Below the pieces are notes generated by a model, which did not search any database, was not told where the DNA came from, and was given only the letters and a program-made list of their open reading frames with translations. Shown in pieces: positions 1-63,619 of a DNA stretch of 64,000 nt (position 1 is its first letter; each line of letters begins with the position of its first letter). Source of the DNA: a virus; IMG/VR virus record IMGVR_UViG_3300009130_001466, positions 1-64,000 of that record; one strand, given 5' to 3'. A program made the translations under genes and the position numbers.

Positions 1-648
1 GCAGAAATAAAATGAATAACTCCCAATCGAAGTCACGCTATCGCCAATAGTTACGCTTTCAAGACTAACGCAGTCCCTGAAAGCATTAGTCCCAATCGAA
101 GTCACACTATCAGGGATATTTATACTGGTAAGGCTGGTGTTCTCGAACGAACTATCCCCAATCGAAGTCACACTATCGCCAATAGTTGCGCTGGTAAGGC
201 TTGAGCAGGCGAAAAAAGTAAAAGACCCAATCGAAGTCACGCTATCAGGAATAGTTATGCTTTCAAGATCTTCGCAGGAGCCAAAAGCATAATCCCCAAT
301 AGAAGTCACGCTATCAGAAATAATTACGCTTGTAAGATTTTCACAGGTATAAAAAGCATATATCCCAATCGAAGTCACATTACTTCCAACGTAAATAGAA
401 GTAAGATTTTCATTTTCAAAATATCCTTCCGAGCTAGTAATACTCGTAAGATTCCGTGTCTGCTCTGTGCTAGACTGAAAGTCCGTTGTGTAGGGGTAAG
501 ATTGCGCAAGAGCAGCATCGCTCATTGGCAAATTAGCCAAGGTAATTTTCTTAGTTTCCCCAGCGCTAGTATCGACAACTGGCAAAATGTCAGTTGCTGC
601 GTTAGCCGAAGTAAGTTCCGTGAGTTGTGATATTTTCTTGTCTGCCAT
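1..648 (-). CDS. BspA/TpLRR (LRR_5) leucine-rich-repeat protein with phage fibre-like N-terminus, truncated by window edge
   Basis: Not in ORF track. ATG at 648 reads MADKKISQLTELTSANAATDILPVVDTSAGETKKITL, then 22-23 aa repeats (LTSITIPDSVTSIGxxAFxxC) open to position 1. Confidence 0.85.
   Translation of the reverse strand, partial: MADKKISQLTELTSANAATDILPVVDTSAGETKKITLANLPMSDAALAQSYPYTTDFQSSTEQTRNLTSITSSEGYFENENLTSIYVGSNVTSIGIYAFYTCENLTSVIISDSVTSIGDYAFGSCEDLESITIPDSVTSIGSFTFFACSSLTSATIGDSVTSIGDSSFENTSLTSINIPDSVTSIGTNAFRDCVSLESVTIGDSVTSIGSYSFYFC
22..378. repeat. Coding tandem repeat, 66-69 bp period (LRR units)
   Basis: cccaat(c/a)gaagtcac at 22, 91, 157, 226, 295, 364; encodes VTSIG on the minus strand. 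Confidence 0.9.
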
Positions 649-656
649 AATTTATA

Positions 657-662
657 TTACAC
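657..662 (-). promoter_or_regulatory. GTGTAA-N8-ATG motif (putative leaderless late promoter)
   Basis: aaGTGTAAtataaattATG in front of the LRR gene. Confidence 0.65.
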
Positions 663-697
663 TTAAAGAATAGAATTTTAACAAAACATTGCCTAAT

Positions 698-1216
698 TTA
701 AATTGTTGTGTTCTCACGGAAATATGATTCATAATTTATTTCCAAAAGATAGCAATCAGTATATAAACTTTTTATATATTCATCTTTGGGGTCAAACTGT
801 TTATTGGATCTGAAAAATATTTTGTTGTGTTTTTTAAAAACTTCGAAATTTTTTCTATTTTTGTCTAAAGGCAAAATCGCGCAAGAAATATTTTTTTGGG
901 AAGTCCTTTTAAAAAATTCTTCAAAAAACCATCTAACAATTTCCATATTATATTCATAAGACATCTCATTCCAAAAGAAAATGTCTATAAAAACCTTGTC
1001 CTCATATATATATCCCAAAGCTCCGCACAATAAACGATTGTCTTTTTGTAAAAAAAGTTTGTATTCTTTTTGACCATTGAAAAGTTCATTAAAATTGTAA
1101 CTAAATTTTATCTCATTAAAATTATTAATAATTTTTGTAAATTGAAGTTTCGCAATTAAATAAGATTCTTTATAATTTGCTTCTTCTGTAAAATAATATT
1201 GGCTCATATTAATCAA
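698..1216 (-). CDS. Hypothetical protein, possibly GNAT-like fold
   Basis: 172 aa ORF; segment LLCGALGYIYEDKVFIDIFF weakly resembles GNAT strands. Confidence 0.55.
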   Translation of the reverse strand: MINMSQYYFTEEANYKESYLIAKLQFTKIINNFNEIKFSYNFNELFNGQKEYKLFLQKDNRLLCGALGYIYEDKVFIDIFFWNEMSYEYNMEIVRWFFEEFFKRTSQKNISCAILPLDKNRKNFEVFKKHNKIFFRSNKQFDPKDEYIKSLYTDCYLLEINYESYFRENTTI

Positions 1217-1805
1217 AATAAAATGTTTTTTTGTTGCTGTATTCGCTGTATGTATCTAAATCAAACCCCAAACTGTTCATTTTGCCTACAATTTCATGTT
1301 CTAAAGAATTTATGTTTATCTGTTCTATGATTTTTTCATCCTTTCTCATTGTTGTGACGTATTTGCCAACTTGATAAATTTTGTCCCTTATTTTTGCTCC
1401 TGAACTTCTGCGAAATTCTTTGCAAAAAATTTGAGAAAAGTCTTTTTTTAAGAAATAAATTTTGATTTCATCATTTTCTATATCCCAGCCAATCCCATAC
1501 CATTGGAAGCCGTCTGGTTCCGACTCTTGAATATTAAGAGCTTTTAGCATTTTTTGAGCATTTTTTTGGAATAAATTCGGATTGGTTTTAGTCCCAAAGA
1601 TAAATCTAGAGCAATTTACAGATTTACCGCAAATGCTAATGGGATAAGAATAACTGGATAAATGTCTGTTTTCCCGAATGTCGTCCTCGCTTATTAAAGA
1701 TAGGGTTTTCACAATAAAGTCGTACTCTTGATGGCTAACTAAATCGATTATTAAGCAAACTTCTTTCTGAAAAATGTAAAATTTCTCTTTAACTTCTTCA
1801 AGCAT
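1209..1805 (-). CDS. Hypothetical protein
   Basis: 198 aa ORF preceded by TATAAT-N5-ATG; overlaps the next gene. Confidence 0.7.
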   Translation of the reverse strand: MLEEVKEKFYIFQKEVCLIIDLVSHQEYDFIVKTLSLISEDDIRENRHLSSYSYPISICGKSVNCSRFIFGTKTNPNLFQKNAQKMLKALNIQESEPDGFQWYGIGWDIENDEIKIYFLKKDFSQIFCKEFRRSSGAKIRDKIYQVGKYVTTMRKDEKIIEQININSLEHEIVGKMNSLGFDLDTYSEYSNKKTFYFD

Positions 1806-1831
1806 AATTTATTATAAATTTAATTTAAAAA

Positions 1832-1837
1832 GTGTAA
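1832..1837 (+). promoter_or_regulatory. GTGTAA-N8-ATG motif
   Basis: aaGTGTAAacttaaatATG in front of the gpL-like gene. Confidence 0.65.
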
Positions 1838-1845
1838 ACTTAAAT

Positions 1846-2817
1846 ATGGCGGAAGGAATAAATCAAAAAGTAGCTTCAGAGGCAATGTCTCTTGATCCAA
1901 GTCAAATTTTGGAATTTTATTTGATATATTATGATTGGCCAGAAGATCAAAATAGTGTTTTAGCTCTAACCCCATATCAAAAATCAATTTCAGATAGGAT
2001 CATATGGCAAGGGCAGGAATTTATATCATACCCAATGGAAGCCGAAGGTTTCGAAGTCAAAGGGGATAATAGTTTACCAAGACCTAGGCTCAAAGTATCC
2101 AACATACAATATGTTATATCTAAATATTTAAAAGTCCATAATAATCTAATCGGGGCAAAAGTAGTTAGAAAGCGAACTTTTGCAAGGTTTTTGGATGACA
2201 TAAATTTTGAAGGAGGTAAAAACCCATATTTTGACATTTCTACACAAGCAAGCGAGGCTTCTGGCGAAATGTTTCTGCCTGATCAGACCTTTTACATAAA
2301 CAGAAGAACTACAGAAACAAAAGAATTAGTTGAATTTGAATTGTCTACCGTTTTTGAGTTAGATAATGTTTATATACCAAATAGAAACGTTTATTCTAGA
2401 TATTGTACATGGATATACAGAGGGCATGGCTGTAGGTACGCGGGGAAGCCAAAAACAACCTCAAATTCTCAACCATTTACGGATTCTAGCGGAGCTACTG
2501 TTACTCCATCGACAAATAAAGGATTATGGAAAAGCGGCTCAACTTACAGTAAAGGTGATTACGTTTTCGTCCAAATTGAAAATTTCGTCATAAGAAAAGA
2601 AGATGAAACAGATTTATCTGCACCAGCAGAAAGGCTAAAAACATTTTATGTTTGTGTCGCTAATAGTGTATCGGGGAATGAAAATTTTCCACCGATATCA
2701 AAAAATTGGCAAAAAGATGAATGCTCAAAAAAAGTCTCTGATTGTAAATTAAGATTTGGAGGTCAATTAAGGTTTGGAGGATACCCAGGAACTCATGCAT
2801 ACCCACCAAAAGGATAA
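1846..2817 (+). CDS. Minor tail protein L (lambda gpL-like)
   Basis: YPMEAEGFE, LPRPRLKVSN, GAKVVRKRTFARFLD, Cys pattern CTWIYRGHGCRY...DECSKKVSDCKLRF, FGGYPG. Confidence 0.92.
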   Translation: MAEGINQKVASEAMSLDPSQILEFYLIYYDWPEDQNSVLALTPYQKSISDRIIWQGQEFISYPMEAEGFEVKGDNSLPRPRLKVSNIQYVISKYLKVHNNLIGAKVVRKRTFARFLDDINFEGGKNPYFDISTQASEASGEMFLPDQTFYINRRTTETKELVEFELSTVFELDNVYIPNRNVYSRYCTWIYRGHGCRYAGKPKTTSNSQPFTDSSGATVTPSTNKGLWKSGSTYSKGDYVFVQIENFVIRKEDETDLSAPAERLKTFYVCVANSVSGNENFPPISKNWQKDECSKKVSDCKLRFGGQLRFGGYPGTHAYPPKG

Positions 2818-3187
2818 ATTTATAAACGATCTTGTAAAATATGCAAATACAGACACGAGTAAAGAGGTTTGTGGTTTTGTATGTTATAGAGACGGAGAGC
2901 TTTTTTTAAAGCCAGCAAAGAATCATTCAAAAGATAATGATATTTTTATAATAAACCCCGCAGATTTTTTAGAAAGAAAATTAAGCGGCGAGCTTTTGGC
3001 AATATTCCACACTCACGTTAATGCTAAAGAAGATCCCTCTGAGTATGATATTGAAAATTCAAAAAATTGTCTTTACCCCTTTTTGATATATTCTTTAGCT
3101 ACTGAAAGATTTCACTTATTTGACATGCCTCATTTCGAAAGACCAGAAAAAGGTGTAATAAGATTAAAGGAGTTTTTGGATGACTAA
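2795..3187 (+). CDS. Tail assembly protein K-like, JAB/MPN domain only
   Basis: EVCG...AIFHTH...PSEYD JAMM motif; no NlpC/P60 part; ATG at 2795 preferred to TTG at 2774. Confidence 0.85.
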   Translation: MHTHQKDKFINDLVKYANTDTSKEVCGFVCYRDGELFLKPAKNHSKDNDIFIINPADFLERKLSGELLAIFHTHVNAKEDPSEYDIENSKNCLYPFLIYSLATERFHLFDMPHFERPEKGVIRLKEFLDD

Positions 3188-15007: not shown

Positions 15008-16165
15008 CTATGTATCTTCTCCCATTTCGGTAATAATTTTTAATTCTTCCATGTCATAAGTTTTAACTGATGGAACTGGGGTATAAAATAATTTATCGAA
15101 ACTCTTGACGTGTTCTGGGAAATACTTTTCAACTGTTGGTCTGAGATTGTTATAAAGATTTAAATAGTGAACTAAATTTTTGCATCTATAAAAAGCTCCA
15201 TACGCATGAAAATGAAAAAGTATCTTATGTAAAAGATCTTGAAAGAGCAAAAGCCTGTTTGTTTCTTTTTTTTCTTCATATTTCGCTAAAAAATCAGGCA
15301 ACGAAACTTCTTTAAGAAGATTTGAGCATTCGTAATACTTTTTAAGAAAATTTTGTACATCTTTTCGAGAAAAATATAATCCCAAATTATTAACAACCTT
15401 TAATAAGCTATAATACAAGTCAGATTGATGCGCCTTCTCAAAATTGATAAATTTAATGAATCCTGACTGATACAAAATATTACTTTTTTTTAAATCGGAA
15501 TGACATAAAACACAAATATCTTCAGAGTAATTTTGTTGGTAAATTTCTTTTAATTTCGAGAAAATGCAAGAAAGTTTTTCAAGGTTTAAATCAACAAGTT
15601 TTTCAAAAATAACAAGTTCTTGTGGTTCTCCTTCTTGAACTACATCAAGGATTGATTCATTTTGCATAAATTTTTCTTCAAAAGAGGGTAATTTTGAATT
15701 GTCGGATTCATGGACAAAATCTAGATTGCAAGCAAACGTACCGATATTAAAAATGAGATCATTGATTCCATAATGATCGAAGTTTTCCCCATTTTCCCAT
15801 GTTGTTAATAGAAATTCCAAATCATGATCGATATTTTTTGTATAATTAATGATTTTTGGTGAAATTAAATCACTGACAGAGGTTAAGCAAAAATTTTCTA
15901 TTTTTAACTTTTGGTTTTCTGGGTCTAGGCTAATTTTTAATAAATATTTTTTATCTTCAATTAAAAGCGAGTAGCTTTCATAAAAAAAATTTGAACTTAT
16001 TAATGCTATATCCGCTTCTTTAATTTCGTAATTTGGGAAAAGGTCTTTTAGATACCTTCTTATCAAACTTGTTTCAAATTCAGATATTTCAGAATCTCTT
16101 TCTTCTGTTTTGTTATCCAGAACAACAAAATTATTTAACCGAAACTCTTTTTCCTTTTCAACCAT
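15008..16165 (-). CDS. APH/choline-kinase-like phosphotransferase
   Basis: YLLKIS, HSDLKKSNI catalytic loop; IKFINFE at the usual DxE position. Confidence 0.8.
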   Translation of the reverse strand: MVEKEKEFRLNNFVVLDNKTEERDSEISEFETSLIRRYLKDLFPNYEIKEADIALISSNFFYESYSLLIEDKKYLLKISLDPENQKLKIENFCLTSVSDLISPKIINYTKNIDHDLEFLLTTWENGENFDHYGINDLIFNIGTFACNLDFVHESDNSKLPSFEEKFMQNESILDVVQEGEPQELVIFEKLVDLNLEKLSCIFSKLKEIYQQNYSEDICVLCHSDLKKSNILYQSGFIKFINFEKAHQSDLYYSLLKVVNNLGLYFSRKDVQNFLKKYYECSNLLKEVSLPDFLAKYEEKKETNRLLLFQDLLHKILFHFHAYGAFYRCKNLVHYLNLYNNLRPTVEKYFPEHVKSFDKLFYTPVPSVKTYDMEELKIITEMGEDT

Positions 16166-16173
16166 ATGTTATA

Positions 16174-16179
16174 TTACAC
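16174..16179 (-). promoter_or_regulatory. GTGTAA-N8-ATG motif
   Basis: tGTGTAAtataacatATG directly after the terminator U-tract. Confidence 0.65.
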
Positions 16180-16205
16180 AAAAAAGGCGGTATTTCTACC
16201 GCCTT
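16180..16205 (-). terminator. Intrinsic terminator
   Basis: Minus strand AAGGCGGTA-GAAA-TACCGCCTT followed by a U-tract. Confidence 0.9.
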
Positions 16206-20551: not shown

Positions 20552-21175
20552 CTAAAAATGATTATAAAAGGGAATAATGATATACCTAACCACTTTTAAG
20601 AATGAAGCCCAAGAGGGATATTTGTATGCAATTTTGTTTAAATATAGATCAATAGGTTTCAGCCAAAATTTTAAATAAACTTTTATTAATTTGGTTTTGA
20701 AAGAAGCTTCTTTGATTATTTTGCCAACTAATTCTCTCTGATCTTTTTTTCTTTCAACGTTGTCCACGCTTTGGCAATTAATGCAAGTAGTACTGACCAA
20801 AAAACCAGACTCAAAAATAAGTTTAAAGTCTAAGCTCCAATCTTGGTCTAAAAAATCTATAGGCTGGTCTGGGGAAATTATAATTTCTCCATTAAAGTTT
20901 TCATCCATCCAGTATTCTCCCCTTCTCTTTATTGCCATTTTGATGGGTACGTCGTTTGAATTCAAATATTCATACTCTTCAAAGTGCTGGGACTTTAAAT
21001 TACCTTCTAGTGAAATTAAATATGTCATCATATCGCTTTCAAAGCTATTTGTAAGAAAGCTGTTCTTGTCTTTTAATGATCTGATAACCTCAGAAGGGAC
21101 AACTATTTTAGTCCAATCGACTGATTGGGCGAATTTCTCTGAGCATTCAAACGACACTTTATCGAACAATTTCAT
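20552..21175 (-). CDS. Hypothetical protein
   Basis: 207 aa ORF preceded by GTGTAA-N8-ATG (21184-21189). Confidence 0.7.
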   Translation of the reverse strand: MKLFDKVSFECSEKFAQSVDWTKIVVPSEVIRSLKDKNSFLTNSFESDMMTYLISLEGNLKSQHFEEYEYLNSNDVPIKMAIKRRGEYWMDENFNGEIIISPDQPIDFLDQDWSLDFKLIFESGFLVSTTCINCQSVDNVERKKDQRELVGKIIKEASFKTKLIKVYLKFWLKPIDLYLNKIAYKYPSWASFLKVVRYIIIPFYNHF

Positions 21176-21189
21176 ACTCTATGTTACAC

Positions 21190-22505: not shown

Positions 22506-22511
22506 GCGGGA

Positions 22512-22540
22512 ATGATACGCTATCAATATCTATTTGTCAA
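22512..22540 (-). promoter_or_regulatory. sigma70-type promoter, leaderless geometry
   Basis: TTGACA-N17-TATCAT-N6-ATG. Confidence 0.75.
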
Positions 22541-26357: not shown

Positions 26358-26372
26358 TTAAGTATTTTACAC

Positions 26373-33732: not shown

Positions 33733-33740
33733 GGTTTTGT

Positions 33741-38014: not shown

Positions 38015-38032
38015 ATAGCAATTTACACTTTT

Positions 38033-38770: not shown

Positions 38771-38784
38771 GTATTACTTTACAC

Positions 38785-41476: not shown

Positions 41477-41483
41477 ACTCACC

Positions 41484-41511
41484 AATTTACACCAACCCAA
41501 ACTAAAGTCAA
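41484..41511 (-). promoter_or_regulatory. sigma70-type promoter of nrdB whose -10 coincides with the GTGTAA motif
   Basis: TTGACT-N16 (ending GTG)-TAAATT-N7-ATG. Confidence 0.7.
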
Positions 41512-41548: not shown

Positions 41549-41733
41549 TTGACTTTTTGTGTATTCGATGTAAAATAGAGTATGATTACGAATGAGCGGA
41601 CGAAGGACGCGAATGAGTAATTATATAATAAATATATTAAATATTTATAAGATACTTAATAAATATATATAAGAAATAAGACAAAATTTTTTTGTCTTGA
41701 CTTTTATTCATTTTTGAACAATAATGTTTGTAA
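41549..41733 (+). other. Divergent control region / candidate replication origin
   Basis: TTGACT-N16-TAAAAT promoter, CGAATGAG direct repeats 21 bp apart, about 60 bp of near-pure AT, AAGACAAAA-TTT-TTTTGTCTT palindrome over a second TTGACT. Confidence 0.45.
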
Positions 41734-42021
41734 ATGATTAAATTAGACACTTCCAAAGAGAGTTTTTATTTTTGCACAACAGCTGGTTGGTCAACTATTG
41801 TTCAGGCTGAAGACGAAAATAAAGCGGCAGGTAAAGCCATTTCCGAAGGAATTAACTTGCTTAAAGAAGAAGCAGAAGTTTCTCCATGTATTAGGGTTAA
41901 AAAAATTAAAGAAAAATTTGAAGATTCAGATGTTCTGATTAGAATAGATGGTGTATTCGCGGACATTGGGATGCATAAAGAATCTCGGTCAATGGTAGAA
42001 ATAATTAAAAATTTAAGATAA
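41734..42021 (+). CDS. Hypothetical protein
   Basis: 95 aa; first gene of the rightward operon. Confidence 0.7.
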   Translation: MIKLDTSKESFYFCTTAGWSTIVQAEDENKAAGKAISEGINLLKEEAEVSPCIRVKKIKEKFEDSDVLIRIDGVFADIGMHKESRSMVEIIKNLR

Positions 42022-42608
42022 TGATAGGAATAGCAGGATTAGCCAGATCAGGTAAAGATACATTAGCGAAAAATCTATCCGAGATTATAAAAGAAGATCT
42101 TGGTATTGAGGTTAAGTTATATTCTTTTGCTTTGCCTATAAGATGTCAGGTGGGTAATTTGCTAGAAGATTATTACCATATATCACCATTCACAGAAGAT
42201 AGTGACGAAAAGCTTATAATTAGGCCACTATTAGTTGCTCACGGAGAGCAAATGAAGAAACAATGGGGTGAAGATTTTTGGCTAAAAGAACTGATGACTC
42301 AGATCGAAGAGGATAGATGTGGGGATAAAAAAATATTTCCCATCATTTCTGATGTTAGATTTGTTCCTGAAGCGGAAACAGTGAAAGCTAAAAATGGTCA
42401 AGTCGTCCATATATCCAAAATAGGAAACGCGCCTCCAAATGAAATTGAAGCAGAAAATGACCCATTGGTTCGCCAATGCTCTGACTTACAACACTCTTGG
42501 CCAGCTTACGACTTAGAAGAAATTCATCAATGCAAATATCACGCACAAATCTTGTGGCAAATGCTAAAACAAACCCAAGGAGATGAATGGAAGAAGATTT
42601 ACTGTTAA
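42021..42608 (+). CDS. Deoxynucleoside monophosphate kinase
   Basis: GIAGLARSGKDT, SFA.PI, IRPLLVAHG, IISDVRF..E. Confidence 0.88.
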   Translation: MIGIAGLARSGKDTLAKNLSEIIKEDLGIEVKLYSFALPIRCQVGNLLEDYYHISPFTEDSDEKLIIRPLLVAHGEQMKKQWGEDFWLKELMTQIEEDRCGDKKIFPIISDVRFVPEAETVKAKNGQVVHISKIGNAPPNEIEAENDPLVRQCSDLQHSWPAYDLEEIHQCKYHAQILWQMLKQTQGDEWKKIYC

Positions 42609-43144
42609 TTAATAAAGTAAAAGAAAGCCAAGATGTAGAGAGCCTAAAAGAATTAATTAATAGGCATTCTGGAATTTACGTCGAAATGGTCAACAAGTAT
42701 TTACCAAATTCCTTTGAGGGGATAAATAAAGATGATGTTATGGATGATAAAGATTTTTCCATTTATGATGCCGCAATAAAATTTGACAAGAATAAAAATA
42801 CAAAGTTTAGTACGTATGTAGGAAATCTAACACGTTGGAAATGTTTGAATATTTATAACAAAAATATAAAATACCCCAAAATCTGCATAAACGATAATTT
42901 AGAAAAAAATGTATCCTGTGGGTCGGGCGTTAAATCAATTGAGGAGCAAGAAGATATAAAAAGAATTTTTTCGATTATACAAAATCATTCAGACAAAAGA
43001 GTTCGTACTATTTTTAAAATGCGCTACAAAAACGGGAAAAAGTTAACTCCTTGGAAAAAGATTGCGAAAAAGCTGAATCTATCAATTCAAGGATGCATTA
43101 ATATTCACAATAAATATTTAACAGAAATCAAGAGGTATGTCTAG
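42587..43144 (+). CDS. Phage RNA polymerase sigma factor (regions 2 and 4)
   Basis: LKELINRHSG, AAIKFDKNKNTKFSTYV, IFKMRY...PWKKIAKKLNLSIQG helix-turn-helix. Confidence 0.85.
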   Translation: MEEDLLLINKVKESQDVESLKELINRHSGIYVEMVNKYLPNSFEGINKDDVMDDKDFSIYDAAIKFDKNKNTKFSTYVGNLTRWKCLNIYNKNIKYPKICINDNLEKNVSCGSGVKSIEEQEDIKRIFSIIQNHSDKRVRTIFKMRYKNGKKLTPWKKIAKKLNLSIQGCINIHNKYLTEIKRYV

Positions 43145-48700: not shown

Positions 48701-51011
48701 TTGATGACGCTATTACATTCGTCGAGCCAGCGGCAATGGAAGATTGGTTAGAGTTTTGTAGTAAATTTCCAGTTCCCGCTCCAACCGAGGAGTCTTGAGA
48801 ATTTATTAAAGTATTACTTGATCCCGCTGTAACCGAGGAGTCTTGAGAATTTGTAAACGTATTATCTTTGCCCGCACCAACGTGGGACCTTTGAGAATTT
48901 TGCATAAAATTCCCAGTTCCCGCTCCGATTGAAGAATCGTCCGAAAGTTTTATGGAGTTTTCTCTACCAGCGACGACCGTGGAAGCCACGCCGCTCACCT
49001 TATTATTTTCGCCAGCGAAAAGCGTGACAAATTTTCCAGAAGCGGTATTGGACTCGCCGCCCATCAAAACGATTCCGTCGCCCACTAACTGATTTCCGCT
49101 ACCCCCGACAAGAACGCTCTTATCTCCGTGAAGGGTATTATTGCTACCTCCGAGCAGAGAAGAGGAAGAGCCAGATACTACATTTTCTATCCCGCCGAGC
49201 AAGGAAGAGTAGCTTCCAGTTCTCAATTCATTATCTCTGCCGCCTAAGATAGAAGCGGAAGAAGTGTTTTCTCCGACCAGATTGTTTCTGCCGCCGAGTA
49301 TCGAAGAGTTGTTTCCGATAGCTTGATTTAAGAAACCCCCTCCAAGAATGGAGTCCTCTCCGCTCACAATATTTTGAAGCCCCGCCAATATCGCTGCGTT
49401 TTCGACATAAACCTTGTTGCGGTTTCCTCCACCGATGAAAGAAGAATTTCCGCTTATGTAATTTTCGTCGCCAGCGGCAATGGAAGATCGGTTAGAGTTT
49501 TGAATGTAGTTTCCAGTTCCAGCGGCAATCGAAGAATCGCTTGAGCCGCTAATTTTATTAAAACCGCCCCCTACAATTGCAGAATTAGCAGAACCACTCA
49601 GTTTATTTTGATTGCCAGCCCCCAGGAAAGATTCATTTGAACTTATAATTCTATTTCCAGTTCCAGCAGAACTTGAAGAATTATTAGACCCTGATAAAAC
49701 ATTTTCTTCGCCAGCTAAAATAGAAGACCCAGTTGAATCAGTCAAAGAATGGCTATCACCAGCACCTATCCACGAACTACTAGAATTTAAAACATTATTT
49801 CCAGAGCCAGCTCCTATGAAAGAACTGGGAGAGTTAGAGAATATATTTTCAGACCCAGCACCTATGAAAGAATTATCCGACGTATTTAAATGATTTTGGG
49901 TTCCAGCCCCCAGTAAACTATCACTTGAACCAGAAATTATATTAGATAGCCCCGCACCTAAAGTTGATCTTGGTGAATTTTTTACTAAATTCAAATTACC
50001 ACCGACAAGAATAGCATTATCCGAAACTAAATTGTTTCCACTTCCTCCAACTATAACACTTTTTTGCCCAGAAATGTTGTTGTTTGATCCACCTACAAGA
50101 GAACTTAAAGATCCACTTATTTCGTTGTTTTCTCCGCCAAGAAGAGAAGAGTGGGTTGAATTTTTTACAATATTTTCCTTGCCTCCAACTATTGTAGAAT
50201 AATTTCCCGTTTTTATTTCATTATTATCTCCGCCTAAAATAGCAGATTTCTGACCGTCTATAGAATTTATATGACCACCAGCAATTACAGAACCTTCGCC
50301 AGTAATTGTGTTATTTGTACCCGCTATTATCCCACCTAAATTAGAATTTACTTGATTCCCATTGCCTCCAGCAATTGCAGATCGATCAGAATTTACTATA
50401 TTATTTTGTCCAGCACCTATGAAAGATTTATTGCCAGAAATTTGGTTTTGGCTGCCAGCCGATATAGAGGATTGATTACCTATCAAATCATTTCCAAGTC
50501 CACCATTTACAGTAGATGAATTTCCAGTAATATGATTTCCAGCACCAGCGCCGATAAAAGAAAAGTTCCCACTTAGAGAGTTATGAGTGCCAGCGGAGAT
50601 AAACGAGTCATCCCCTATTAAAGAATTATATGTGCCAACACCAATGGCGGAATAATCCCCACTTAGAAAATTATTATTGCCAGCTAATATAACAGAATAA
50701 TTCCCACTTAAAGTATTTACGTTTCCAGCAAATATAACAGATCCTTGCGAATTTTGAGCCATTTGAAGCTGACCCTCCCCCAAACCAGAAAGCGAATTAT
50801 TTTTATAAACAAGCTCTAAACCTTGATAAGTTGGTATAGAATTGAAATTCTTAACTCCAGATATGTTCTGATCGCCAGTTTTTAATACTATTTTGTTTCC
50901 ATCCCAATCTATATCAGATCCATCTCCATTTGTGACTATCGCAGTGTTTGGATCTGAATTCAGTATATAGATATAACTAGAATCTATTCTTTTTCCGTAA
51001 AGGTCTGCCAT
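45744..51011 (-). CDS. Giant beta-solenoid tail fibre/adhesin
   Basis: Dozens of 14-16 aa SxIxGGxxNxI repeats; N-terminal TGDQNISGVKNF; start MADLYGK at 51011 after GTGTAA-N8 (51020-51025). Confidence 0.85.
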   Translation of the reverse strand: MADLYGKRIDSSYIYILNSDPNTAIVTNGDGSDIDWDGNKIVLKTGDQNISGVKNFNSIPTYQGLELVYKNNSLSGLGEGQLQMAQNSQGSVIFAGNVNTLSGNYSVILAGNNNFLSGDYSAIGVGTYNSLIGDDSFISAGTHNSLSGNFSFIGAGAGNHITGNSSTVNGGLGNDLIGNQSSISAGSQNQISGNKSFIGAGQNNIVNSDRSAIAGGNGNQVNSNLGGIIAGTNNTITGEGSVIAGGHINSIDGQKSAILGGDNNEIKTGNYSTIVGGKENIVKNSTHSSLLGGENNEISGSLSSLVGGSNNNISGQKSVIVGGSGNNLVSDNAILVGGNLNLVKNSPRSTLGAGLSNIISGSSDSLLGAGTQNHLNTSDNSFIGAGSENIFSNSPSSFIGAGSGNNVLNSSSSWIGAGDSHSLTDSTGSSILAGEENVLSGSNNSSSSAGTGNRIISSNESFLGAGNQNKLSGSANSAIVGGGFNKISGSSDSSIAAGTGNYIQNSNRSSIAAGDENYISGNSSFIGGGNRNKVYVENAAILAGLQNIVSGEDSILGGGFLNQAIGNNSSILGGRNNLVGENTSSASILGGRDNELRTGSYSSLLGGIENVVSGSSSSLLGGSNNTLHGDKSVLVGGSGNQLVGDGIVLMGGESNTASGKFVTLFAGENNKVSGVASTVVAGRENSIKLSDDSSIGAGTGNFMQNSQRSHVGAGKDNTFTNSQDSSVTAGSSNTLINSQDSSVGAGTGNLLQNSNQSSIAAGSTNVIASSTGSLVGVGDDNTITGSTSSVLLGGKTNKIQNSTHSSLVGGRSNYIIGTESSLVGGNNNSISGDRSVLVGGSNNDVFGDETILVGGQNNTASGLYATLFGGQDNNLTGTGVAILAGRNNDVKDSLDSCISAGRINVVEDSERCSITAGRGNNIIDSSDSFIAGGTGNSIIESDNGVILTPDGSTIDTNTDVTISFTTADTGIIREVGFAAQFTKFPFQDLLYSEIYESDIHPQPWYTWSATDGFERISGYWFEQKVFDAPVYASILNGIENKVQSDFSTILNGSGNELAGANSIVAGINNKASGHNSYIFGGTGNTINLSFLTGSSSENLDKGFYYFNRDYKNYNTIINGENNVIGSNKAGERFVIEGVFANGSNLEAVQNKHSHIFGGEENSVDGIGGFILNGKRNDIHAVTHSLYGEFGFRNTFNFGHDFVIPELSGMEESDLLRDFNDRRQTWESLSSIFSSVRCSTHGQLLSISNSMNSSIESGYRGPNVSSFQDSDNYPIFCNISNSLGSLVKAAHYSSIFNGIGNEISQSGERIKSANSTILNGNRNKILTEVSELDATDVLNNTYSTILNGLNNTIYGRKSTIINGAENTLSGRNNLIFGDENEIVGEEPSVYSLIIGEQNSITGAAFNTQNTREDSNYIFGKKNKLDFCSNLFVIGGHNFTRSSQNSSDNIFRASLDVFCFNHDESTVSGAFYSEIKNIYASNLSSVTDSSISNLGNCNVLGLSSSSANNLINSNARSILSSNLNYVNDSELSGINRCSVFNLIQSDISNAADSKIQGNNINIDHDLDYSDILGSNINLTGRVRVEHSRILGEDITFVKFGDTSTFVDFRHCDILGYGNTLSGVGGFVSNLSIKGFNNNVKSSSNVFIYGDRINVQNSNKSTFFGEDIESSGQNTFVFGDNIDSQHIAGSVIKDSKITQTQSKGEDTLFLDFDQGTYMNVPLWTGASTPGVGGQIMYSGDNMYIHNGSNWREINTSAV

Positions 51012-51019
51012 AATCTTAT

Positions 51020-52144
51020 TTACACAAAACTGTTCCAAATAAAGTCATTATGACTGAAAATAGTTCCGTTGTTCTTATTCCAAAGGTAAACAGAGGCGCC
51101 AGTTAATATATTTATATTATTTGCGCCAAAAATTAAATTTGCATCTTCTGATAATTCTGATGAAATAGAGTTACTGAAGTTTTTGGACTGTAAACTTGCT
51201 CCAGAAATATTGACCATGAAGTTTTTGCCATTTATCTTGCCACCACTTATGCTTATATAATAAGTTTCTGAATTTTTTAAAAAATTTAATAAAGAATGAT
51301 CGGTTTCTATGTCTGAAACTTTATTTTTTAAAGAAATTTTTCCTAAAAACGGAGGAGTCGCCACCCTTCCCATTGGAAAATATTTATCTATAGAATTTAT
51401 TCTTTTTCTGTTAAAATCGAGATTTATGTCGAAAGATTGAATATTATCTGGCTTAATCAAGAAAGAATCTTCTGTTCCTATCCCGCTTATTTTTACATAA
51501 GTATTGTATCCAGCAGTCCACTCTCCCATAAAGTTGGACTCAATTAATTCATCGTATATGCCAGTAAACACAAAATTACCAACTGGTTGTTGATCTCCAG
51601 TTAAATTAACAGATGGAGACTTGCCACTGCTTAATAAATACTGCCCATCGCTACCACTATATTCTTGCGCAATTATATTACTTCCGATGTATGAATAGTC
51701 ACTGGTTAAAATACCACCAACTTTTTGATTTATTTTTACAGAGTCAAGAAAACAATTTCCTATTGAAAGCGAACTCTCATATTGACTAAGAACAGTTCTT
51801 TCTTCGTCTCTACCAACAATAGAATAAAAGTTTTTCCCCCGATTTAAATCTTCACGAAGTTGCCCTCCAGTAAAAACATCTTCAAACAATGTTTCAAAAT
51901 TTTCAAGTATAGATAAGTTTACATTGACATCTGGGGCTTGATTTGAATAAATAAAATTTTTCTTTTTTGATCCCACTGAACCCTTACTACTAACTAAATT
52001 AGATCCAAAATCAAAATCAAAACTTTGCACCCCTGGCAAGAAGAACATACCGCTTCCGTTATTCATTTCTTGCTGATGAAACTCATCCTCGCTATAAAAC
52101 AAGCAAACATCCGCGTATCTATTTACAAATCTAGACGCACTCAT
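51020..52144 (-). CDS. Tail-tube-fold baseplate protein (paralog A)
   Basis: GVQSFDFDF, PSVNLTGDQ, IQSFDINLDFNRKRI; paralog of the neighbouring gene. Confidence 0.6.
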   Translation of the reverse strand: MSASRFVNRYADVCLFYSEDEFHQQEMNNGSGMFFLPGVQSFDFDFGSNLVSSKGSVGSKKKNFIYSNQAPDVNVNLSILENFETLFEDVFTGGQLREDLNRGKNFYSIVGRDEERTVLSQYESSLSIGNCFLDSVKINQKVGGILTSDYSYIGSNIIAQEYSGSDGQYLLSSGKSPSVNLTGDQQPVGNFVFTGIYDELIESNFMGEWTAGYNTYVKISGIGTEDSFLIKPDNIQSFDINLDFNRKRINSIDKYFPMGRVATPPFLGKISLKNKVSDIETDHSLLNFLKNSETYYISISGGKINGKNFMVNISGASLQSKNFSNSISSELSEDANLIFGANNINILTGASVYLWNKNNGTIFSHNDFIWNSFV

Positions 52145-57200: not shown

Positions 57201-59637
57201 TCTTGGAAACACCCTTGCCTCCAGCGCCAAATTTTTCCATCTTATTGGCCATACTGTTGTATATACGAGTATTACCAGAGATTTTAGCCTCTATAAATCT
57301 AGCCTGGTCAGAGATTCCAGGATATAATTTTGCTATATCGTTTCTGGCCGCACTACCAACAAAATCAAATGTAGCTGTTTGAGATAAATCATATTGCGGG
57401 CTTTTTAATATGGAGCTAATAGCGGCTTCATAAATTACACCAGCCAAAGACGATACAGATCCTCGGTTTCCCAGTTCGTTTATTTTCGTTGCGGCTGGTC
57501 TTCCTCCACTTATTTTTTTAGCTTCTAGATTAGCTAATCCTACACCAAATTTTCCGACAGATTTTACATAATCCTTCGTTTCTCTGCCTTTTATTTGCGC
57601 ATCATTATAGCCCAAAATTGGAAATTGATAACTTTTGCCAGTTTTTGATTTTCCTACAGCGAATTTGCCCAAATTTTTATCTGGAGTAATTAAAGCGAAT
57701 CTACGGTCTTGTATTGGAGCTGCTTGCCTCTTTGCAAAATTAGGAATAAATCCACTAGCCGCATTTATCTTTTTCGCCCCACTTGGAAGGCCCATCGACC
57801 TAACCATGTCTTGGTTAAATATAGCATCTCCGCCTCCAGCATAATTAGGAACAAAATATTCACTAGTGTTTGCGACCATTGTGCCACGTTTGCCGCCACC
57901 AAAAGCAAAATTAGGAATTGAAACAACTTTGGAGCTAGACGGGGCGCCACCAACACCACGAGAAACGTCACGAGCTTCGGCAGCAACATAACCATCAGAT
58001 GCTCTTCCTTTAGGGGTAACCCCTTTTGTCCCGCCACGCAGTCCAGCACCAAAAAGTCCAGGCGTTACAGTTGCAGCGGCTTTTTGAACCCTAGCGAGCG
58101 CGGCGGCTTGTTGGTTATAAATTTTTAGAAGTAATTGTTCTTGAGCTACCTTATTTCCTTCTAGGGCTAAAATCTCTCTTTGGATACTTTCATTTTGCAG
58201 CAGTGTCTGAAGGACGGACTGTTGAAGCGATTTTTGAGCCTCCGCAGCCTTGTTAATACCAAGCAGGCTTTTTAAGGAACTAGCTCCAAACTTTGCCAAG
58301 TCTACAAATAATTTTACAAATATAGCACTAATTAAAGCTAACCCTGGGCCAGTTAAAACGCCACCTATCCCCTTAACTATGCTTTGTGCGAATTTTGAAC
58401 CTATTGAATCTCCCTGCAATAAATCAGTAATCCCACTAACTACAGAAGAAAACACCTTTAAAATATCTTTCGCTGCATCAGTAAAACCCAATTCTCCAAC
58501 AACAGAAGAGAGTTTTTGCGCCCCAACTGTCAAATTATTTATCAATGCTTCTAGCGTATCATTTAATTGGGCGTTTTTTCTATCTAAGGCGCCAGCAGCT
58601 CCAGCGGAAACTTGAAGAGATTTTGCAAACTGACTTTGGCTAGAATTTAAATCTTCGACCAAACTAATTAAAATATCACGCTGGCGAACGCCAGCAACTT
58701 TTTGGATAATCTCTCCAGCCTCAACACTTTTTAAACCAAGCTTGTTGAGCTCTACTGCGAGTTCCTGAAAAAGAGGTATAGCGCTTCTTACATTACCTTC
58801 CACGTCTACAACATTTATTCCCAAGTCTTCAAGCGCGGCTAATGTATCAGTTCTGCCCAATCTAGCAAAAATGGTTTTAAAAGCATTACCAATAACAGCG
58901 CCGCCACGCTGAGTTCTTTCTTGCACGGTTGTAATGACACCTAAAAGCTCATCAAAAGATACGCCAGCTACACGAGCCGATGCGGAAGCTCGTTCAAGAC
59001 CGTTAATCAAATCCTCCGTAGACACAGCGAACTTTGTATCAACTTCGGCTAATTTATCCGCTATTTGAGCTACATTTAAACCAGCGCCTTCAAAACCCTT
59101 TATCGCTGCAGTCAAACCAGCTACAGCTTGTTGAGAATCAATACCAGCGACGCGAACTAATTTCAAAGAAGTTTCAACACGAGAAAGCGACTCTTCTACG
59201 CTTAAACCCTGACGAGCTAACTCTAAAGCGCCATCGGCCACCTGATCAAAAGATGTCGCTGTTTTTTGAGCTACAGCGAAAATACCATTACCAAATTGTT
59301 CTAATTCTTTTTGGGTCCCCCCTAAAATAGTATTAATTTTTGCAAAAGTAGCTTCTACTCTAATAGTGTTTTCTACTAGCGCCCCAAATGCTTGAGAAAG
59401 TTTATTAATAACAGCAACCGAAGCACCAAAAGCTAAAACACGAGCATTAGAAGCTTCTAATGATTTTTGGAATTCAGTGGCTTGCCCTGTTATTTTTCCA
59501 AGCGGGCGAGATAGCTTTTCAATGGATCGTGCCCCGCTTCCAAAATCAACTCCCTTAGCTTGAGTCTGTATTCTAGCTAAAGCCGCCTCAACCTTTCTTG
59601 TATTTGGTTCTAAATTTACTCCTACATTTACCGCCAT
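54217..59637 (-). CDS. Tail tape measure protein
   Basis: 1806 aa Ala/Gly-rich helical; ALELARQGL, DKLAEVD..AVS, RGGAVIGNAFKTIF, TDTVPAMLTPGEFVV; GTGTAA-N8-ATG at 59646-59651. Confidence 0.93.
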   Translation of the reverse strand: MAVNVGVNLEPNTRKVEAALARIQTQAKGVDFGSGARSIEKLSRPLGKITGQATEFQKSLEASNARVLAFGASVAVINKLSQAFGALVENTIRVEATFAKINTILGGTQKELEQFGNGIFAVAQKTATSFDQVADGALELARQGLSVEESLSRVETSLKLVRVAGIDSQQAVAGLTAAIKGFEGAGLNVAQIADKLAEVDTKFAVSTEDLINGLERASASARVAGVSFDELLGVITTVQERTQRGGAVIGNAFKTIFARLGRTDTLAALEDLGINVVDVEGNVRSAIPLFQELAVELNKLGLKSVEAGEIIQKVAGVRQRDILISLVEDLNSSQSQFAKSLQVSAGAAGALDRKNAQLNDTLEALINNLTVGAQKLSSVVGELGFTDAAKDILKVFSSVVSGITDLLQGDSIGSKFAQSIVKGIGGVLTGPGLALISAIFVKLFVDLAKFGASSLKSLLGINKAAEAQKSLQQSVLQTLLQNESIQREILALEGNKVAQEQLLLKIYNQQAAALARVQKAAATVTPGLFGAGLRGGTKGVTPKGRASDGYVAAEARDVSRGVGGAPSSSKVVSIPNFAFGGGKRGTMVANTSEYFVPNYAGGGDAIFNQDMVRSMGLPSGAKKINAASGFIPNFAKRQAAPIQDRRFALITPDKNLGKFAVGKSKTGKSYQFPILGYNDAQIKGRETKDYVKSVGKFGVGLANLEAKKISGGRPAATKINELGNRGSVSSLAGVIYEAAISSILKSPQYDLSQTATFDFVGSAARNDIAKLYPGISDQARFIEAKISGNTRIYNSMANKMEKFGAGGKGVSKTGLGELQKSRVAGPSRKAVTAEFNRRSAGGYIPNFARGALDEAVAREQAAGLPINQIRINQSGKLRNSQNPQGLAVTNTRDEPTGRIPNFAKRGTAGATESVDKFSNAALGASTALFFLSSAFSGAESGLGKFISEVSLAASLLSGLSLLKGPLENVGAKLSSFGTELATFRSPRTGGIMRGSEGKLRGARGGLGRGIAGVGRALPGIGTAVAVGAVVAPLVLELTKTKTGFEKLNESLKNIDLGELSAGSIEASAALKSSFVAEIKRASEKAELAKKLNVEADADIGDILEKQVKGLKGINKGFFGGVKDKETLSASLAKVGSTTELQKIIDASSTDVEKEFFNPRRGTTRTTVEKEFNAVLFAENMIKAIEQIDAAAKKAADAALIAASGFGEKGVIGSAAKKSFKESIGEGRFAAGGFDTTKQLEPTKPGEIGATIFQEGALSAIRGKELDLAKAVTTVRKVGLENEIAMGEFLIERAKEEFKITEEYVKSITDASVFSEKQKEFIEGQVKAGASLLSIEEGLAEAGIELSKKAKTDFDLAVAKAEIQQRVLDDKLEEIKLQQEINNLNKPQGFADGFSKGLGQVKDDIDFFKDELGENIPLQFSDNLGSAMKDAVSGAKDLDEALSDAGRNFLGFIRDAFLQQAADQFTNTLFSGGPTGVFGGAGGGGQKNIFSSIGGLFGGGGASGAAGGAASGGAAASGAAASGAAASGGGLFSKVGGFFGDLFGGGKKGGGALGSSPTNPLFVQDVANAISGGATSGAEKALEGITGKEGEGQEGFFSKIKSGFGDLFGGLKDKLGGIFGGLKDSLVGLFGGGAGGGGIFSSLLGGLGGIGSGIGGIFSSLLGGLSGGLGSLFSFFNAGGSVGRGTDTVPAMLTPGEFVVKKSAVDKYGTDFLSSLNKGMLPMQGFQNGGAVSPVASEAGSNALGGGEITNNSDFTFNIQDGKVSQEGGQGSSENQREFASRIRSAVTTVIQEESRSGGTLNYLYKS
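55058..55117. repeat. 15-bp coding tandem repeat (AAASG)
   Basis: ccgctagcagctgc(a/g) three times plus a degenerate copy. Confidence 0.85.
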
Positions 59638-59651
59638 ACAGAATATTACAC

Positions 59652-61353: not shown

Positions 61354-61643
61354 TATTTTTTAAAAGTAAATTCTACTGTTAAGTTTTCCAACTCACTATT
61401 ATAATCTCTTAAAACACAATTTCCAATATCTAGAATTTTTTTTCTATATATTTCGTAATGATCTTCATCAAAATAATCAGCCATCTCAATTAAGTCGTGA
61501 TGTTCTTCTGGTAAGTTGTCGTAAAGTTTGCCGAAATTTATTTCATGCACCCTCTGCATCTCTTCTAACGTTTGTAAAAAAGATTTAAATAAATAACGAA
61601 TGTGATGATCAGATCGATCATACAGAAATTCTTTTGCAATCAT
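61353..61643 (-). CDS. Hypothetical protein
   Basis: Start MIAKEF at 61643; GTGTAA upstream at 61668-61673. Confidence 0.7.
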   Translation of the reverse strand: MIAKEFLYDRSDHHIRYLFKSFLQTLEEMQRVHEINFGKLYDNLPEEHHDLIEMADYFDEDHYEIYRKKILDIGNCVLRDYNSELENLTVEFTFKK

Positions 61644-61667
61644 AATAATCCTTATCCCCAATATACG

Positions 61668-61707
61668 TTACACTTTTTTAAGAGGCTGGTTCTATTTTCT
61701 AGTGTAA
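61668..61707. promoter_or_regulatory. Back-to-back divergent GTGTAA motifs
   Basis: ttacac at 61668-61673 (minus) and gtgtaa at 61702-61707 (plus, N8 to ATG 61716) at the strand switch. Confidence 0.65.
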
Positions 61708-61715
61708 TTATACAT

Positions 61716-62174
61716 ATGCCAAGCTCTTTAATTTCGGAATCTCAAAAAAACACAATCAAAACTATCATTGACGATATTCATGAAACCTTCGCTAGAAATA
61801 TTACTGTCTACGAAGAAGGAAGAAAAATATTAATTGCTGCTAGTTCTGAATACAATGGCATTTACGGCAAAACAAGTGGGGGAGAAACCTCTACCACTAA
61901 AACGGTTGTTAGCCATATAATAAAAGCAAGAATCAAATATATAAATTCAAGAGAGGAAAATTTAGCTGGCGCAGGCATAGGCTCCCAATTGGATATAAAT
62001 TTAATTGATGGCTCTGTAAGAATAACCGTAGATGAGGGCGGTTTTGAAATTTTAAAAGAAGCAAAGAGATGCGAATTTGAAGGTCGAAAATATACTATTG
62101 ACAGCAAAGGAAATCCAACTGGTATTTTTGGACCACAATATTATCATTTTTATCTATCGCCAATTGAAGAATAA
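61716..62174 (+). CDS. Putative head-closure/neck protein
   Basis: Start MPSSLIS at 61716; IHETFARNITVY...IKARIKY...FEGRKY; position before tail completion genes. Confidence 0.6.
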   Translation: MPSSLISESQKNTIKTIIDDIHETFARNITVYEEGRKILIAASSEYNGIYGKTSGGETSTTKTVVSHIIKARIKYINSREENLAGAGIGSQLDINLIDGSVRITVDEGGFEILKEAKRCEFEGRKYTIDSKGNPTGIFGPQYYHFYLSPIEE

Positions 62175-62755
62175 TGGCTACTTTAAATTTGCAGTCAGAA
62201 ATAAATAAAAAACTGGCTCCTCAAGTTAGGCCAGAAATCAGAAAATTATTTCAAAGGTCTTTTCAGAAAAAAAAGAATGAAATGATAGCTGAATTTTTAA
62301 ATCACCCAGTGACTATAGAAATAAAAGGAGGTGTTAATTCTACAAACATCAGTGGAACATTAGGCGGAGGAAGCGGGAATTTGTTTTCTTTTATAGGTTT
62401 CGATTCCAACGACGATCCGATAGAGCCTATTTTAAGAATACTTGAACAAATATCATTTGACTACCTAAACACGTCAACAAAAAGGATAAATTACAGAATT
62501 AATCTACCATCGTCAAAAGAAATTTTCGCCGCGACCCCAATGCCGTGGGCTACTGGCCGTAGTTGGGCAAAAGGAATTGAGACTGGAATATCTGGACTTG
62601 GATTTTATTTAAGAAAAGAAACCTCTAACAGTAGATCTGGATTAGGTATTCAGTCCCCAAGAAAAGTTAGAAAAAAATCAAAATTTAAAAATATAAAATA
62701 TATATCTGATTTAATTAAAAGGTATGAAAAAGAATTTTCAAACCTGCAGATATAA
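62174..62755 (+). CDS. Putative neck/tail completion protein
   Basis: HPVTIEI, GNLFSFIGF, PMPWATGRSWAKGIETGISGLG; synteny. Confidence 0.55.
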   Translation: MATLNLQSEINKKLAPQVRPEIRKLFQRSFQKKKNEMIAEFLNHPVTIEIKGGVNSTNISGTLGGGSGNLFSFIGFDSNDDPIEPILRILEQISFDYLNTSTKRINYRINLPSSKEIFAATPMPWATGRSWAKGIETGISGLGFYLRKETSNSRSGLGIQSPRKVRKKSKFKNIKYISDLIKRYEKEFSNLQI

Positions 62756-62770
62756 GTGTAAAATATCCTT

Positions 62771-63619
62771 ATGAAACCACAGTATCAACACGAACTCATG
62801 ACAAGTTTCATGCTTTGGTTCGATCACGAACTCCTTCAGAAAGGAGAGGCTTACTCTAACCAAACAGGCGCTTTTTATTATTCTAACGATACCAGACTGC
62901 CGAATGAGTACAAAGCTTATTCAAGCCCATATAAGCAATGGGTAAGCGATTCTTCAATAAACGGAGACACAAATCCAATAATACCATCATCTCTTATGGG
63001 TAGCGGCAGAAACGATGGAATTATATTTGATTTTGAAAACGGGAGAATCATTGAAACAGGCGGTAATTTTGGAATAAACAGCACTATTACTGGAAGCTTC
63101 GCCGTAAAAGATTTTAATGTTTATTTAACAAACGAAACTGAAGAAGATTTGATTCTAGAAAACAAATTTCAATTAAATAGCAGATACTCAAAAACAGAAA
63201 CTGGAGTTGAGCCATATGATCAAATGGCTCCAGCTATATTTTTAAATTGCGAATATATGAGGAATGAAGGTTTTGCCTTTGGCGGAGAAGAAAAAACAAC
63301 AAATATCGTTAAAGCGGTCGTTTTGGCCGAAAATTCTTATCAACTTGATGGAGCTTTATCTATATTTGCAGATTCCTCTAGGAAGATTATCTCCAAAATA
63401 CCATTTTCCAAACACCCCTCGACCGAGTATGGTGATATTAAAAACGGTTTGTATAATTATGCAAATTTGGCAAATACTTACCTAAACGCAAATCCTTACT
63501 ATATAGAAGATGTGACGGTTTCTAAATTTTCAGAAAAAAACCAAAGTATAATACCTGGAAATTTAAAAATTGGATTTATAGATTTTGAGGTTTCTACAAA
63601 TAGGTTTCCTCGTTCTTGA
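62771..63619 (+). CDS. Putative tail terminator/completion protein
   Basis: PAIFL...GFAFGG...GFIDFEVS; precedes the tube gene; GTGTAA-N9-ATG at 62756-62761. Confidence 0.55.
   Translation: MKPQYQHELMTSFMLWFDHELLQKGEAYSNQTGAFYYSNDTRLPNEYKAYSSPYKQWVSDSSINGDTNPIIPSSLMGSGRNDGIIFDFENGRIIETGGNFGINSTITGSFAVKDFNVYLTNETEEDLILENKFQLNSRYSKTETGVEPYDQMAPAIFLNCEYMRNEGFAFGGEEKTTNIVKAVVLAENSYQLDGALSIFADSSRKIISKIPFSKHPSTEYGDIKNGLYNYANLANTYLNANPYYIEDVTVSKFSEKNQSIIPGNLKIGFIDFEVSTNRFPRS

Follow-up and report, generated by a model that had tools for sequence, protein, structure and literature searches.

GTGTAA as a candidate one-box middle/late promoter adjoining start codons in an uncultured aquatic phage and its relatives

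The DNA analysed here (the window, 64,000 nucleotides) is the first 64 kb of the 112,801-bp IMG/VR virus record IMGVR_UViG_3300009130_001466 (G000; completeness estimate 83%), which belongs to an uncultured, aquatic tailed phage with a G+C content of about 36%. In this genome the hexamer GTGTAA stands at a nearly fixed short distance before the start codons of many genes. We conclude that (A)GTGTAA is probably a one-box middle/late promoter of this phage and of its uncultured relatives, from which transcription, judging by the sequence, would start at or next to the start codon.

Position of the GTGTAA box

The original prediction was based on GTGTAA lying 8 nucleotides (nt) before the ATG of ten genes in the window (GTGTAA-N8-ATG), and all ten were confirmed (starts at 648, 1846, 16165, 21175, 33732, 38014, 38770, 51011, 59637 and 61716). 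The copies listed at other distances were also found, namely N9 at 26357, 33417 and 62771, N10 at 41476, N21 at 3180 and N24 at 61643. The ATG at 26942, which had been counted among the gene starts, opens just 11 codons behind a box at N12 and is no gene.

In the comparison with shuffled controls that had been proposed as a check, the N8 position was strongly enriched, whereas the total number of copies was not (30 observed, 23.7 expected). GTGTAA-N8-ATG occurs 15 times in the whole genome, ten of them in the window, as compared with a mean of 0.66 and a maximum of 3 in 200 dinucleotide-preserving shuffles; the reversed control pattern has no occurrence. When every hexamer at every offset upstream of ATGs opening open reading frames (ORFs) of at least 60 amino acids (aa) was scanned without bias, GTGTAA at -14 came out in the first rank (15 observed, 0.15 expected), and the motif could be extended to A-GTGTAA.

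With a spacer of 7-12 nt, the box precedes 21 genes of the genome, 14 of these in the window. The absence of a Shine-Dalgarno sequence at such start-proximal boxes, already noted in the prediction, holds for the whole genome (0/21 at a duplex energy of -4.5 or lower), as compared with 18% of other genes; among the genes that have neither this box nor the second promoter class described below, 10-18% have a detectable Shine-Dalgarno sequence. Of the start codons that follow the box, 56 are ATG and 3 are GTG, and the base preceding the ATG is T in 13 of the 15 N8 copies of G000. Most copies do overlap or adjoin the stop codon of the preceding gene (e.g. TAA-GTG-TAA). The sites in the window are the following.

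646..662, minus strand: GTGTAA-N8-ATG of a 216-aa ORF truncated at the edge of the window; a TAA stop codon abuts the box
1832..1848, plus strand: GTGTAA-N8-ATG of the minor tail protein gene, within a divergent intergenic region of 40 bp; conserved in G003 and G001
3153..3182, plus strand: distal GTGTAA, 21 nt before a tail assembly gene, with AAAGGAG in between (duplex energy -8.3); conserved in G003
16163..16179, minus strand: GTGTAA-N8-ATG of a 385-aa ORF; conserved in relatives
21173..21189, minus strand: GTGTAA-N8-ATG of a 207-aa ORF in the replication module
26355..26372, minus strand: GTGTAA-N9-ATG of an 81-aa ORF; N10 in G003
26940..26960, minus strand: orphan GTGTAA-N12-ATG, 11 codons, no gene start
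33415..33432, minus strand: GTGTAA-N9-ATG of a 296-aa ORF; N11 in G003, N10 in G001
33730..33746, minus strand: GTGTAA-N8-ATG of a 94-aa ORF
38012..38028, minus strand: GTGTAA-N8-ATG of a 112-aa ORF (phrog_1084)
38768..38784, minus strand: GTGTAA-N8-ATG of a 245-aa ORF
41474..41511, minus strand: hybrid TTGACT-N16-(GTG)TAAATT-N7-ATG of the ribonucleotide reductase (RNR) small subunit gene; conserved in G003
51009..51025, minus strand: GTGTAA-N8-ATG of a 1755-aa fibre-like protein
59635..59651, minus strand: GTGTAA-N8-ATG of the 1806-aa tape measure protein; N9 in G003
61641..61673, minus strand: distal GTGTAA at 24 nt from the ATG of a 96-aa ORF, GGGGATAAGGA lying in between; first gene of a divergent pair
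61702..61718, plus strand: GTGTAA-N8-ATG of a 152-aa ORF, which is the partner in that divergent pair
62756..62773, plus strand: GTGTAA-N9-ATG of a 282-aa ORF

Conservation and anatomy of the box

The scan of related phages put forward with the prediction detected the GTGTAA signal in all four whole related genomes that were searched (G001 to G004). The further analysis was performed on three whole relatives assembled from pieces, G003 (92 kb), G001 (140 kb, complete) and G002 (146 kb, complete; IMGVR_UViG_3300025809_002164). The box is retained ahead of 15 of the 17 evaluable orthologous genes in G003 and of 7 of 12 in G001, while the spacer and the upstream bases have diverged; at the minor tail gene, GTGTAA-N8 persists in G001 at 36% protein identity. 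The spacer ranges from 8 to 12 nt among orthologues, and single-base variants of the hexamer are nearly unused in G000, G003 and G001.

For the anatomy of the box, 137 unique instances from the clade were aligned. No conserved -35 partner or other upstream element was found among them, with no informative position from -50 to -6 relative to the box; a weak enrichment of A at about -15, -26 and -37 is not relied on. Positions -5 to -2 are T-rich, and the base directly before the box is A in 70% of the instances, partly because TAA or TGA stop codons abut it. The six bases downstream are about 90% A/T. The box had originally been read as containing a -10-like hexamer, TAAnnT. This reading fits 10 of 13 window sites, but over the clade the T is found at only 44% of the sites, which is weak; what does not vary is (A)GTGTAA itself.

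It is the TTGACT-N16 case at 41511 that sets the register of the box. The canonical extended -10 element (TGnTAnnnT, with TG at -15/-14 and one spacer base) was considered and discarded, as in GTGTAA the TG directly abuts the TAA. A second candidate motif, GTTACG, found before ATGs in G001, turned out to be an in-frame repeat within one repeat protein. At a 650-aa gene outside the window (70478-72430, minus strand), located upstream of the terminase gene, TATAAT-N5-ATG follows GTGTAA at a variable distance, which is 7 nt in G000 and G003 but 2 nt in G001. The -10-like hexamer is therefore distinct from the box at this gene, which a simple reading of TAA as the -10 element does not account for.

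Promoter versus RNA signal

Five independent features of the sequence context bear on whether the box is a promoter acting at the DNA level or a signal acting in the RNA. In 18 of the 137 instances an intrinsic terminator (a G+C-rich hairpin with a T-tract) runs directly into the box, and seven different hairpin sequences, in different lineages, are found in this arrangement. The example in the window is

16184..16205, minus strand: hairpin of an intrinsic terminator, its T-tract leading directly into the GTGTAA at 16179; relatives show this arrangement with different hairpins

Transcription of a gene behind such a terminator must begin anew, within 8-12 nt of its ATG. At the divergent junctions 1805/1846, 61643/61716 and 80983/81168, too, the box stands ahead of the first genes; the 1805/1846 junction is the 40-bp intergenic region listed above. 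At the distal copies (N21 at 3180 and N24 at 61643), GGAG or AAGGA lies between box and ATG, and a distal N21 copy before a 2471-aa gene in G001 is likewise followed by a Shine-Dalgarno sequence. A spacing of 16 bp separates TTGACT from the downstream TAA of the box at the RNR small subunit gene, which puts the TAA at -12 to -10 of a sigma70-type promoter.

Copies inside genes were counted in G000 to G003, pooled, against codon-order shuffles. On the antisense strand they are depleted (44 observed, 106.7 expected), the 15th lowest value of 3145 hexamers, with TACGTA, TCCGGA and GGACC(T/A) among the lower ranks; on the sense strand they are near expectation (36 versus 49.9). Selection against antisense copies would be expected for a promoter and not for an mRNA signal, and the depletion therefore favours a promoter. 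Taken together, the terminators, the divergent junctions, the Shine-Dalgarno sequences confined to distal copies, the antisense depletion and the register at the RNR gene favour a DNA-level promoter. As a translation-free test, use of the box ahead of tRNA clusters was looked for; the tRNA clusters are preceded by TTGACA promoters instead.

The same observations bear on two explanations at the RNA level. According to the first, which the original prediction had named as its alternative, the box would be a non-Shine-Dalgarno signal in polycistronic transcripts that recruits ribosomes or serves termination-reinitiation at a fixed distance from the AUG. The constant spacing, the frequent overlap with the upstream stop codon (TAA-GTG-TAA) and the rarity of Shine-Dalgarno sequences in this phage would all suit it. 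We nevertheless hold it to be improbable, given that copies right after terminators and at divergent junctions have no upstream message, that distal copies are followed by an ordinary Shine-Dalgarno sequence, that the antisense strand and not the sense strand is depleted, and that the register of the box fits a -35 element at the RNR gene. According to the second explanation, a host or phage endoribonuclease would process long transcripts immediately ahead of the AUG, at sites marked by the box, and release leaderless messages. The nearly invariant T preceding the ATG in N8 copies and the location of boxes inside operons could be understood in this way. However, the copies that abut terminators or lie at divergent junctions count against cleavage too, antisense depletion is unexpected for any RNA signal, and no candidate nuclease is linked to the motif, so that we give cleavage very little credence.

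A second, sigma70-type promoter class

The other promoter class of the phage consists of an A/T-rich tract, TTGAC(A/T), N17, TAtAaT, N6 and ATG, and is a textbook sigma70 promoter. In 15 genes of G000 and 13 of G003, 35 nt separate the T of TTGACA from the ATG, and at 28 of 43 TTGAC sites the -10 element ends 5-10 nt before an ORF. By this geometry, transcription would start (+1) on the A of the ATG. The early region (83-112 kb) holds the majority of the sites; in the window they are found at 14544, 22540, 26108, 28486 and 41697. Sigma70-type or sigma70-like promoters in the window include the following.

22503..22540, minus strand: TTGACA-N17-TATCAT-N6-ATG, an example of the sigma70-type leaderless geometry
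41697..41736, plus strand: TTGACT-N17-AATAAT-N8-ATG, heading the operon that contains the sigma factor gene at 42587
1806..1838, minus strand: divergent sigma70-like TTTACA-N16-TATAAT-N5-ATG of the gene at 1209-1805

The last of these shares bases with the box of the minor tail gene. Within 1806-1848, the plus-strand GTGTAAA is the reverse complement of the TTTACAC that holds the -35-like hexamer of the minus strand.

Judged by the geometry of both classes, promoter-proximal genes appear as a rule to be expressed without a leader. The geometry of the sigma70-type class matches that of the box and lends support to a start at or near the AUG there as well. Genes in internal positions show coupling or an overlap of stop and start codons, an A/T-rich region upstream or, occasionally, a Shine-Dalgarno sequence.

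Sigma factors and proposed mechanism

The prediction of a phage sigma factor at 42587 was borne out, the product being a divergent sigma-70-family protein by profile and fold matches. A second divergent sigma-like ORF was found outside the window. We refer to the two proteins as sigma1 and sigma2.

42587..43144, plus strand: sigma1, 185 aa, with its own Shine-Dalgarno sequence, in the operon headed by the 41697 promoter
76278-76949, minus strand: sigma2, 223 aa, outside the window; Sigma70_r2 21.5 bits, r4_2 18.4 bits

Sigma1 matches NCBIfam TIGR02937 with 33 bits over residues 19-183, under the cut-off of 42.9 bits, as well as PHROG 351 and, with 16 bits, Pfam Sigma70_r2. A profile built from 18 sigma1 homologues matches region 2 of SigA in the PDB (E = 2e-4), with KFSTY...W aligned. 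The AlphaFold model is all-helical (mean predicted local distance difference test score, pLDDT, 81.7), with a disordered linker at residues 100-112, and its top Foldseek matches in the PDB are all sigma factors (sigma32, sigmaS, sigmaE, WhiG, SigI and SigA; probability 1.0, E down to 3e-4). As modelled, the protein has the fold of a sigma factor made up of a region 2 domain, a flexible linker and a region 4 helix-turn-helix. Homologues of sigma1 form 1436 clusters in public data and are present in G001 to G003; no match was found among 50,697 phage records. The sigma2 operon is headed by the GTGTAA-N10-ATG of the PhoH gene at 77975, and sigma2 was found in G001 and G003 and not in G002. In G002, where no sigma2 homologue is detectable, GTGTAT before start codons is as common as GTGTAA (8 versus 7); the two observations may point to a shifted promoter specificity in that phage.

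In the mechanism that we propose, the box would lie at about -14 to -9 and the A/T-rich stretch downstream of it would melt easily. In the N8 class RNA polymerase would start at the A of the ATG, and with spacers of 9-12 nt it would start a few bases upstream of the ATG. The resulting messages, with no or almost no leader and without a Shine-Dalgarno sequence, would undergo leaderless translation. Most likely, the box would be read by the host core polymerase with a phage sigma factor, for which sigma1, expressed from a sigma70-type promoter, and sigma2, encoded behind a GTGTAA box, are the candidates; this arrangement suggests a cascade. The core of the original proposal, a putative -35-less box with a start predicted at or near the AUG, has good but indirect support, whereas its late virion regulon, its T4 analogy and its TAAnnT hexamer are not supported.

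The possibility that the box is read by the primary sigma factor of the host has to be weighed against this mechanism. In that case the GTG would extend a weak -10 element (TAAnnn), a phage factor blocking -35 recognition would shift promoter use from the TTGACA type to the GTGTAA type, and the phage sigma-like proteins would serve other promoters or none of these. A factor of this kind, gp39 of phage P23-45, reportedly acts in Thermus by blocking -35 recognition. The RNR site, where the TAA stands exactly at the -10 place relative to TTGACT with a 16-bp spacer and is conserved in G003, agrees with such a reading, as do TAAnnT at 10 of 13 window sites and a distance of 5 nt from hexamer to ATG, like that of the sigma70-type promoters of the phage (5-6 nt). 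The invariant bases, however, are GTGTAA, with the T expected at -7 present in just 44% of the clade sites, and the TG at -14/-13 is one base off the canonical TGn register. In addition, sigma70 -10 elements are normally degenerate, yet single-base variants of the box are nearly unused, and a dedicated sigma factor is conserved in the phages. For these reasons we regard reading by the host sigma factor as unlikely, although clearly less so than either RNA-level explanation.

It is important to mention the points that weigh against a leaderless promoter read by a phage sigma factor. Promoter activity and the exact start point are features that we infer from sequence alone, and the same applies to the identity of the sigma factor reading the box and to leaderless translation. 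The variation of the spacer between 8 and 12 nt among orthologues implies that some leaders would be 1-4 nt long and not zero. The overlap or contact of most copies with the upstream stop codon would fit a coupling or reinitiation signal as well. G002 retains the motif as GTGTA(A/T) yet shows no sigma2 homologue, and both sigma1 and sigma2 have a region 4-like C-terminal domain although no -35 element is conserved. Finally, leaderless mRNAs are rare, at only 5.5%, in Flavobacterium (PMC9723704), which is one of the two host leads described below.

Target genes of the box

The targets had been described as mostly virion genes of a late regulon, a description that the whole set does not support. 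Besides tail, tape-measure and fibre genes, the set contains the RNR small subunit gene, the PhoH gene outside the window and three ORFs of the replication module, and so spans replication, nucleotide-metabolism and structural modules. The early region (83-112 kb) is poor in the box, with two copies only. Since the box is rare there and its targets are mixed, we read it as a middle/late class that is not restricted to virion genes.

The orphan GTGTAA-N12-ATG lies in about 210 nt of gene-free sequence upstream of a 133-aa ORF with a TTG start (26373-26984, minus strand). We take this ORF to resemble DUF559/Vsr-type endonucleases, and it may be an inserted mobile endonuclease.

The phage, its relatives and its host

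G000 encodes tail, tape-measure and fibre proteins, a DnaE-like polymerase, a primase, a helicase, RNR, a terminase and eight tRNAs. A search for cultured relatives found none; a megablast of 20 kb gave no match, and the closest identities were at most 32% for the DnaE-like polymerase and at most 29% for the terminase. Polymerases 58-88% identical to that of G000 are encoded on at least 80 IMG/VR contigs. The clade consists of uncultured phages from marine and freshwater habitats, with genomes of about 140 kb and a G+C content of 30-44%.

RNR-bearing phage-like contigs were binned with metagenome-assembled genomes (MAGs) of Flavobacterium, Flavobacteriales and Crocinitomicaceae, and one sigma1 homologue is located in a Methylophilaceae MAG. 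The MAGs that hold phage-like contigs of the clade are labelled Flavobacterium, Flavobacteriales, Crocinitomicaceae, Bacteriovoracaceae and Methylophilaceae; they are either hints to the host or binning contamination. As leads, we consider Methylophilaceae or Flavobacteriales, which would make the host neither Thermus nor an actinobacterium. The TTGACA/TATAAT early promoters of the phage do not conform to the TAnnTTTG promoter type of Bacteroidota.

The most depleted hexamers in the coding regions of G000 to G003, relative to codon-order shuffles, are palindromic or resemble restriction sites (GGACC(T/A), TACGTA, TCCGGA and AACCGG), which suggests avoidance of restriction sites.

The analysis also raises the possibility that nearly every promoter-proximal gene of this large and abundant clade is leaderless, with early genes behind TTGACA-N17-TAtAaT-N6-ATG and middle/late genes behind GTGTAA read by a phage sigma factor, in a host that is neither Thermus nor an actinobacterium. 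We lean slightly against this combined statement. If it were true, leaderless initiation would be exceptional in the host, which would imply a phage-wide translation strategy and perhaps a takeover that favours leaderless messages.

Comparison with known systems

Should the proposed promoter be confirmed, a compact and near-invariant signal of about 14 bp would provide both the transcription and the translation start, in a very large clade of uncultured phages (the linked sigma factor forms 1436 clusters). It would then be possible to annotate transcription units and genuine start codons in the genomes of this clade; in G000 the box already corrects four starts relative to the first-ATG rule of a simple gene caller (61716, 80983, 106105 and 106398). 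Programme-wide leaderless expression in phages would be extended beyond the Thermus and actinobacterial systems, and the box together with the sigma factor is a candidate orthogonal promoter system.

The original prediction drew an analogy with the T4 late promoters (TATAAATA, read with gp55, gp33 and gp45). These do have in common with the system proposed here one box near -10, no -35 element, a small phage sigma factor of about 185 aa and late genes as targets. The analogy does not hold further, as the motif differs and the TATAAATA consensus did not emerge from the hexamer-by-offset scan, in which the enriched box was GTGTAA. Moreover, T4 late mRNAs have leaders with Shine-Dalgarno sequences, and gp55 corresponds to the region 2-like part only, whereas sigma1 has two domains, the C-terminal one being the region 4-like helix-turn-helix.

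A closer likeness is found in phage phiEco32, whose gp36-dependent promoters consist of the single element tAATGTAtA, have no -35 element and start 6-8 bp downstream (PMC8948821). Both systems have one conserved box without a -35 element, a TGTA core, a divergent phage sigma factor and middle and late target genes, although the reading of GTGTAA by a phage sigma factor is a candidate assignment. As a predicted start, the A of the ATG in the N8 class lies 9 bp after the box, where 6-9 bp is the distance in phiEco32-type promoters. The two differ in that gp36 is without region 4 homology while sigma1 has a region 4-like domain, in the host of phiEco32, which is E. coli, and in its transcripts, which are not described as leaderless in PMC8948821. 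No sequence match between the sigma proteins is detectable.

Leaderless mRNAs are common in Thermus, and it is the phages of this genus (phiYS40, P23-45 and Lalka27a) that resemble the present phage in their overall programme. They share with it early promoters of the host type (TTGACA/TAnnnT), a separate late class and dense late promoters inside gene clusters. In P23-45, the middle and late promoters fall into the extended -10 class and are read by the host RNA polymerase. Lalka27a has early and middle promoters of the host type, a late -10 element TAGGGT and mostly leaderless transcripts, as found earlier for phiYS40 (bioRxiv 10.64898/2026.04.20.719267). In most transcripts of the Thermus phages the first nucleotide is the A or G of the start codon, whereas here the start point is a prediction. 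The motif also differs from theirs, TAnnnT is not kept, the lineage is unrelated and the host is probably not Thermus. A full-text literature search found no relevant phage-promoter report of GTGTAA. Starting messages at or next to the start codon is a strategy already known from the Thermus phages, and what is new here is the box, the clade and probably the kind of host.

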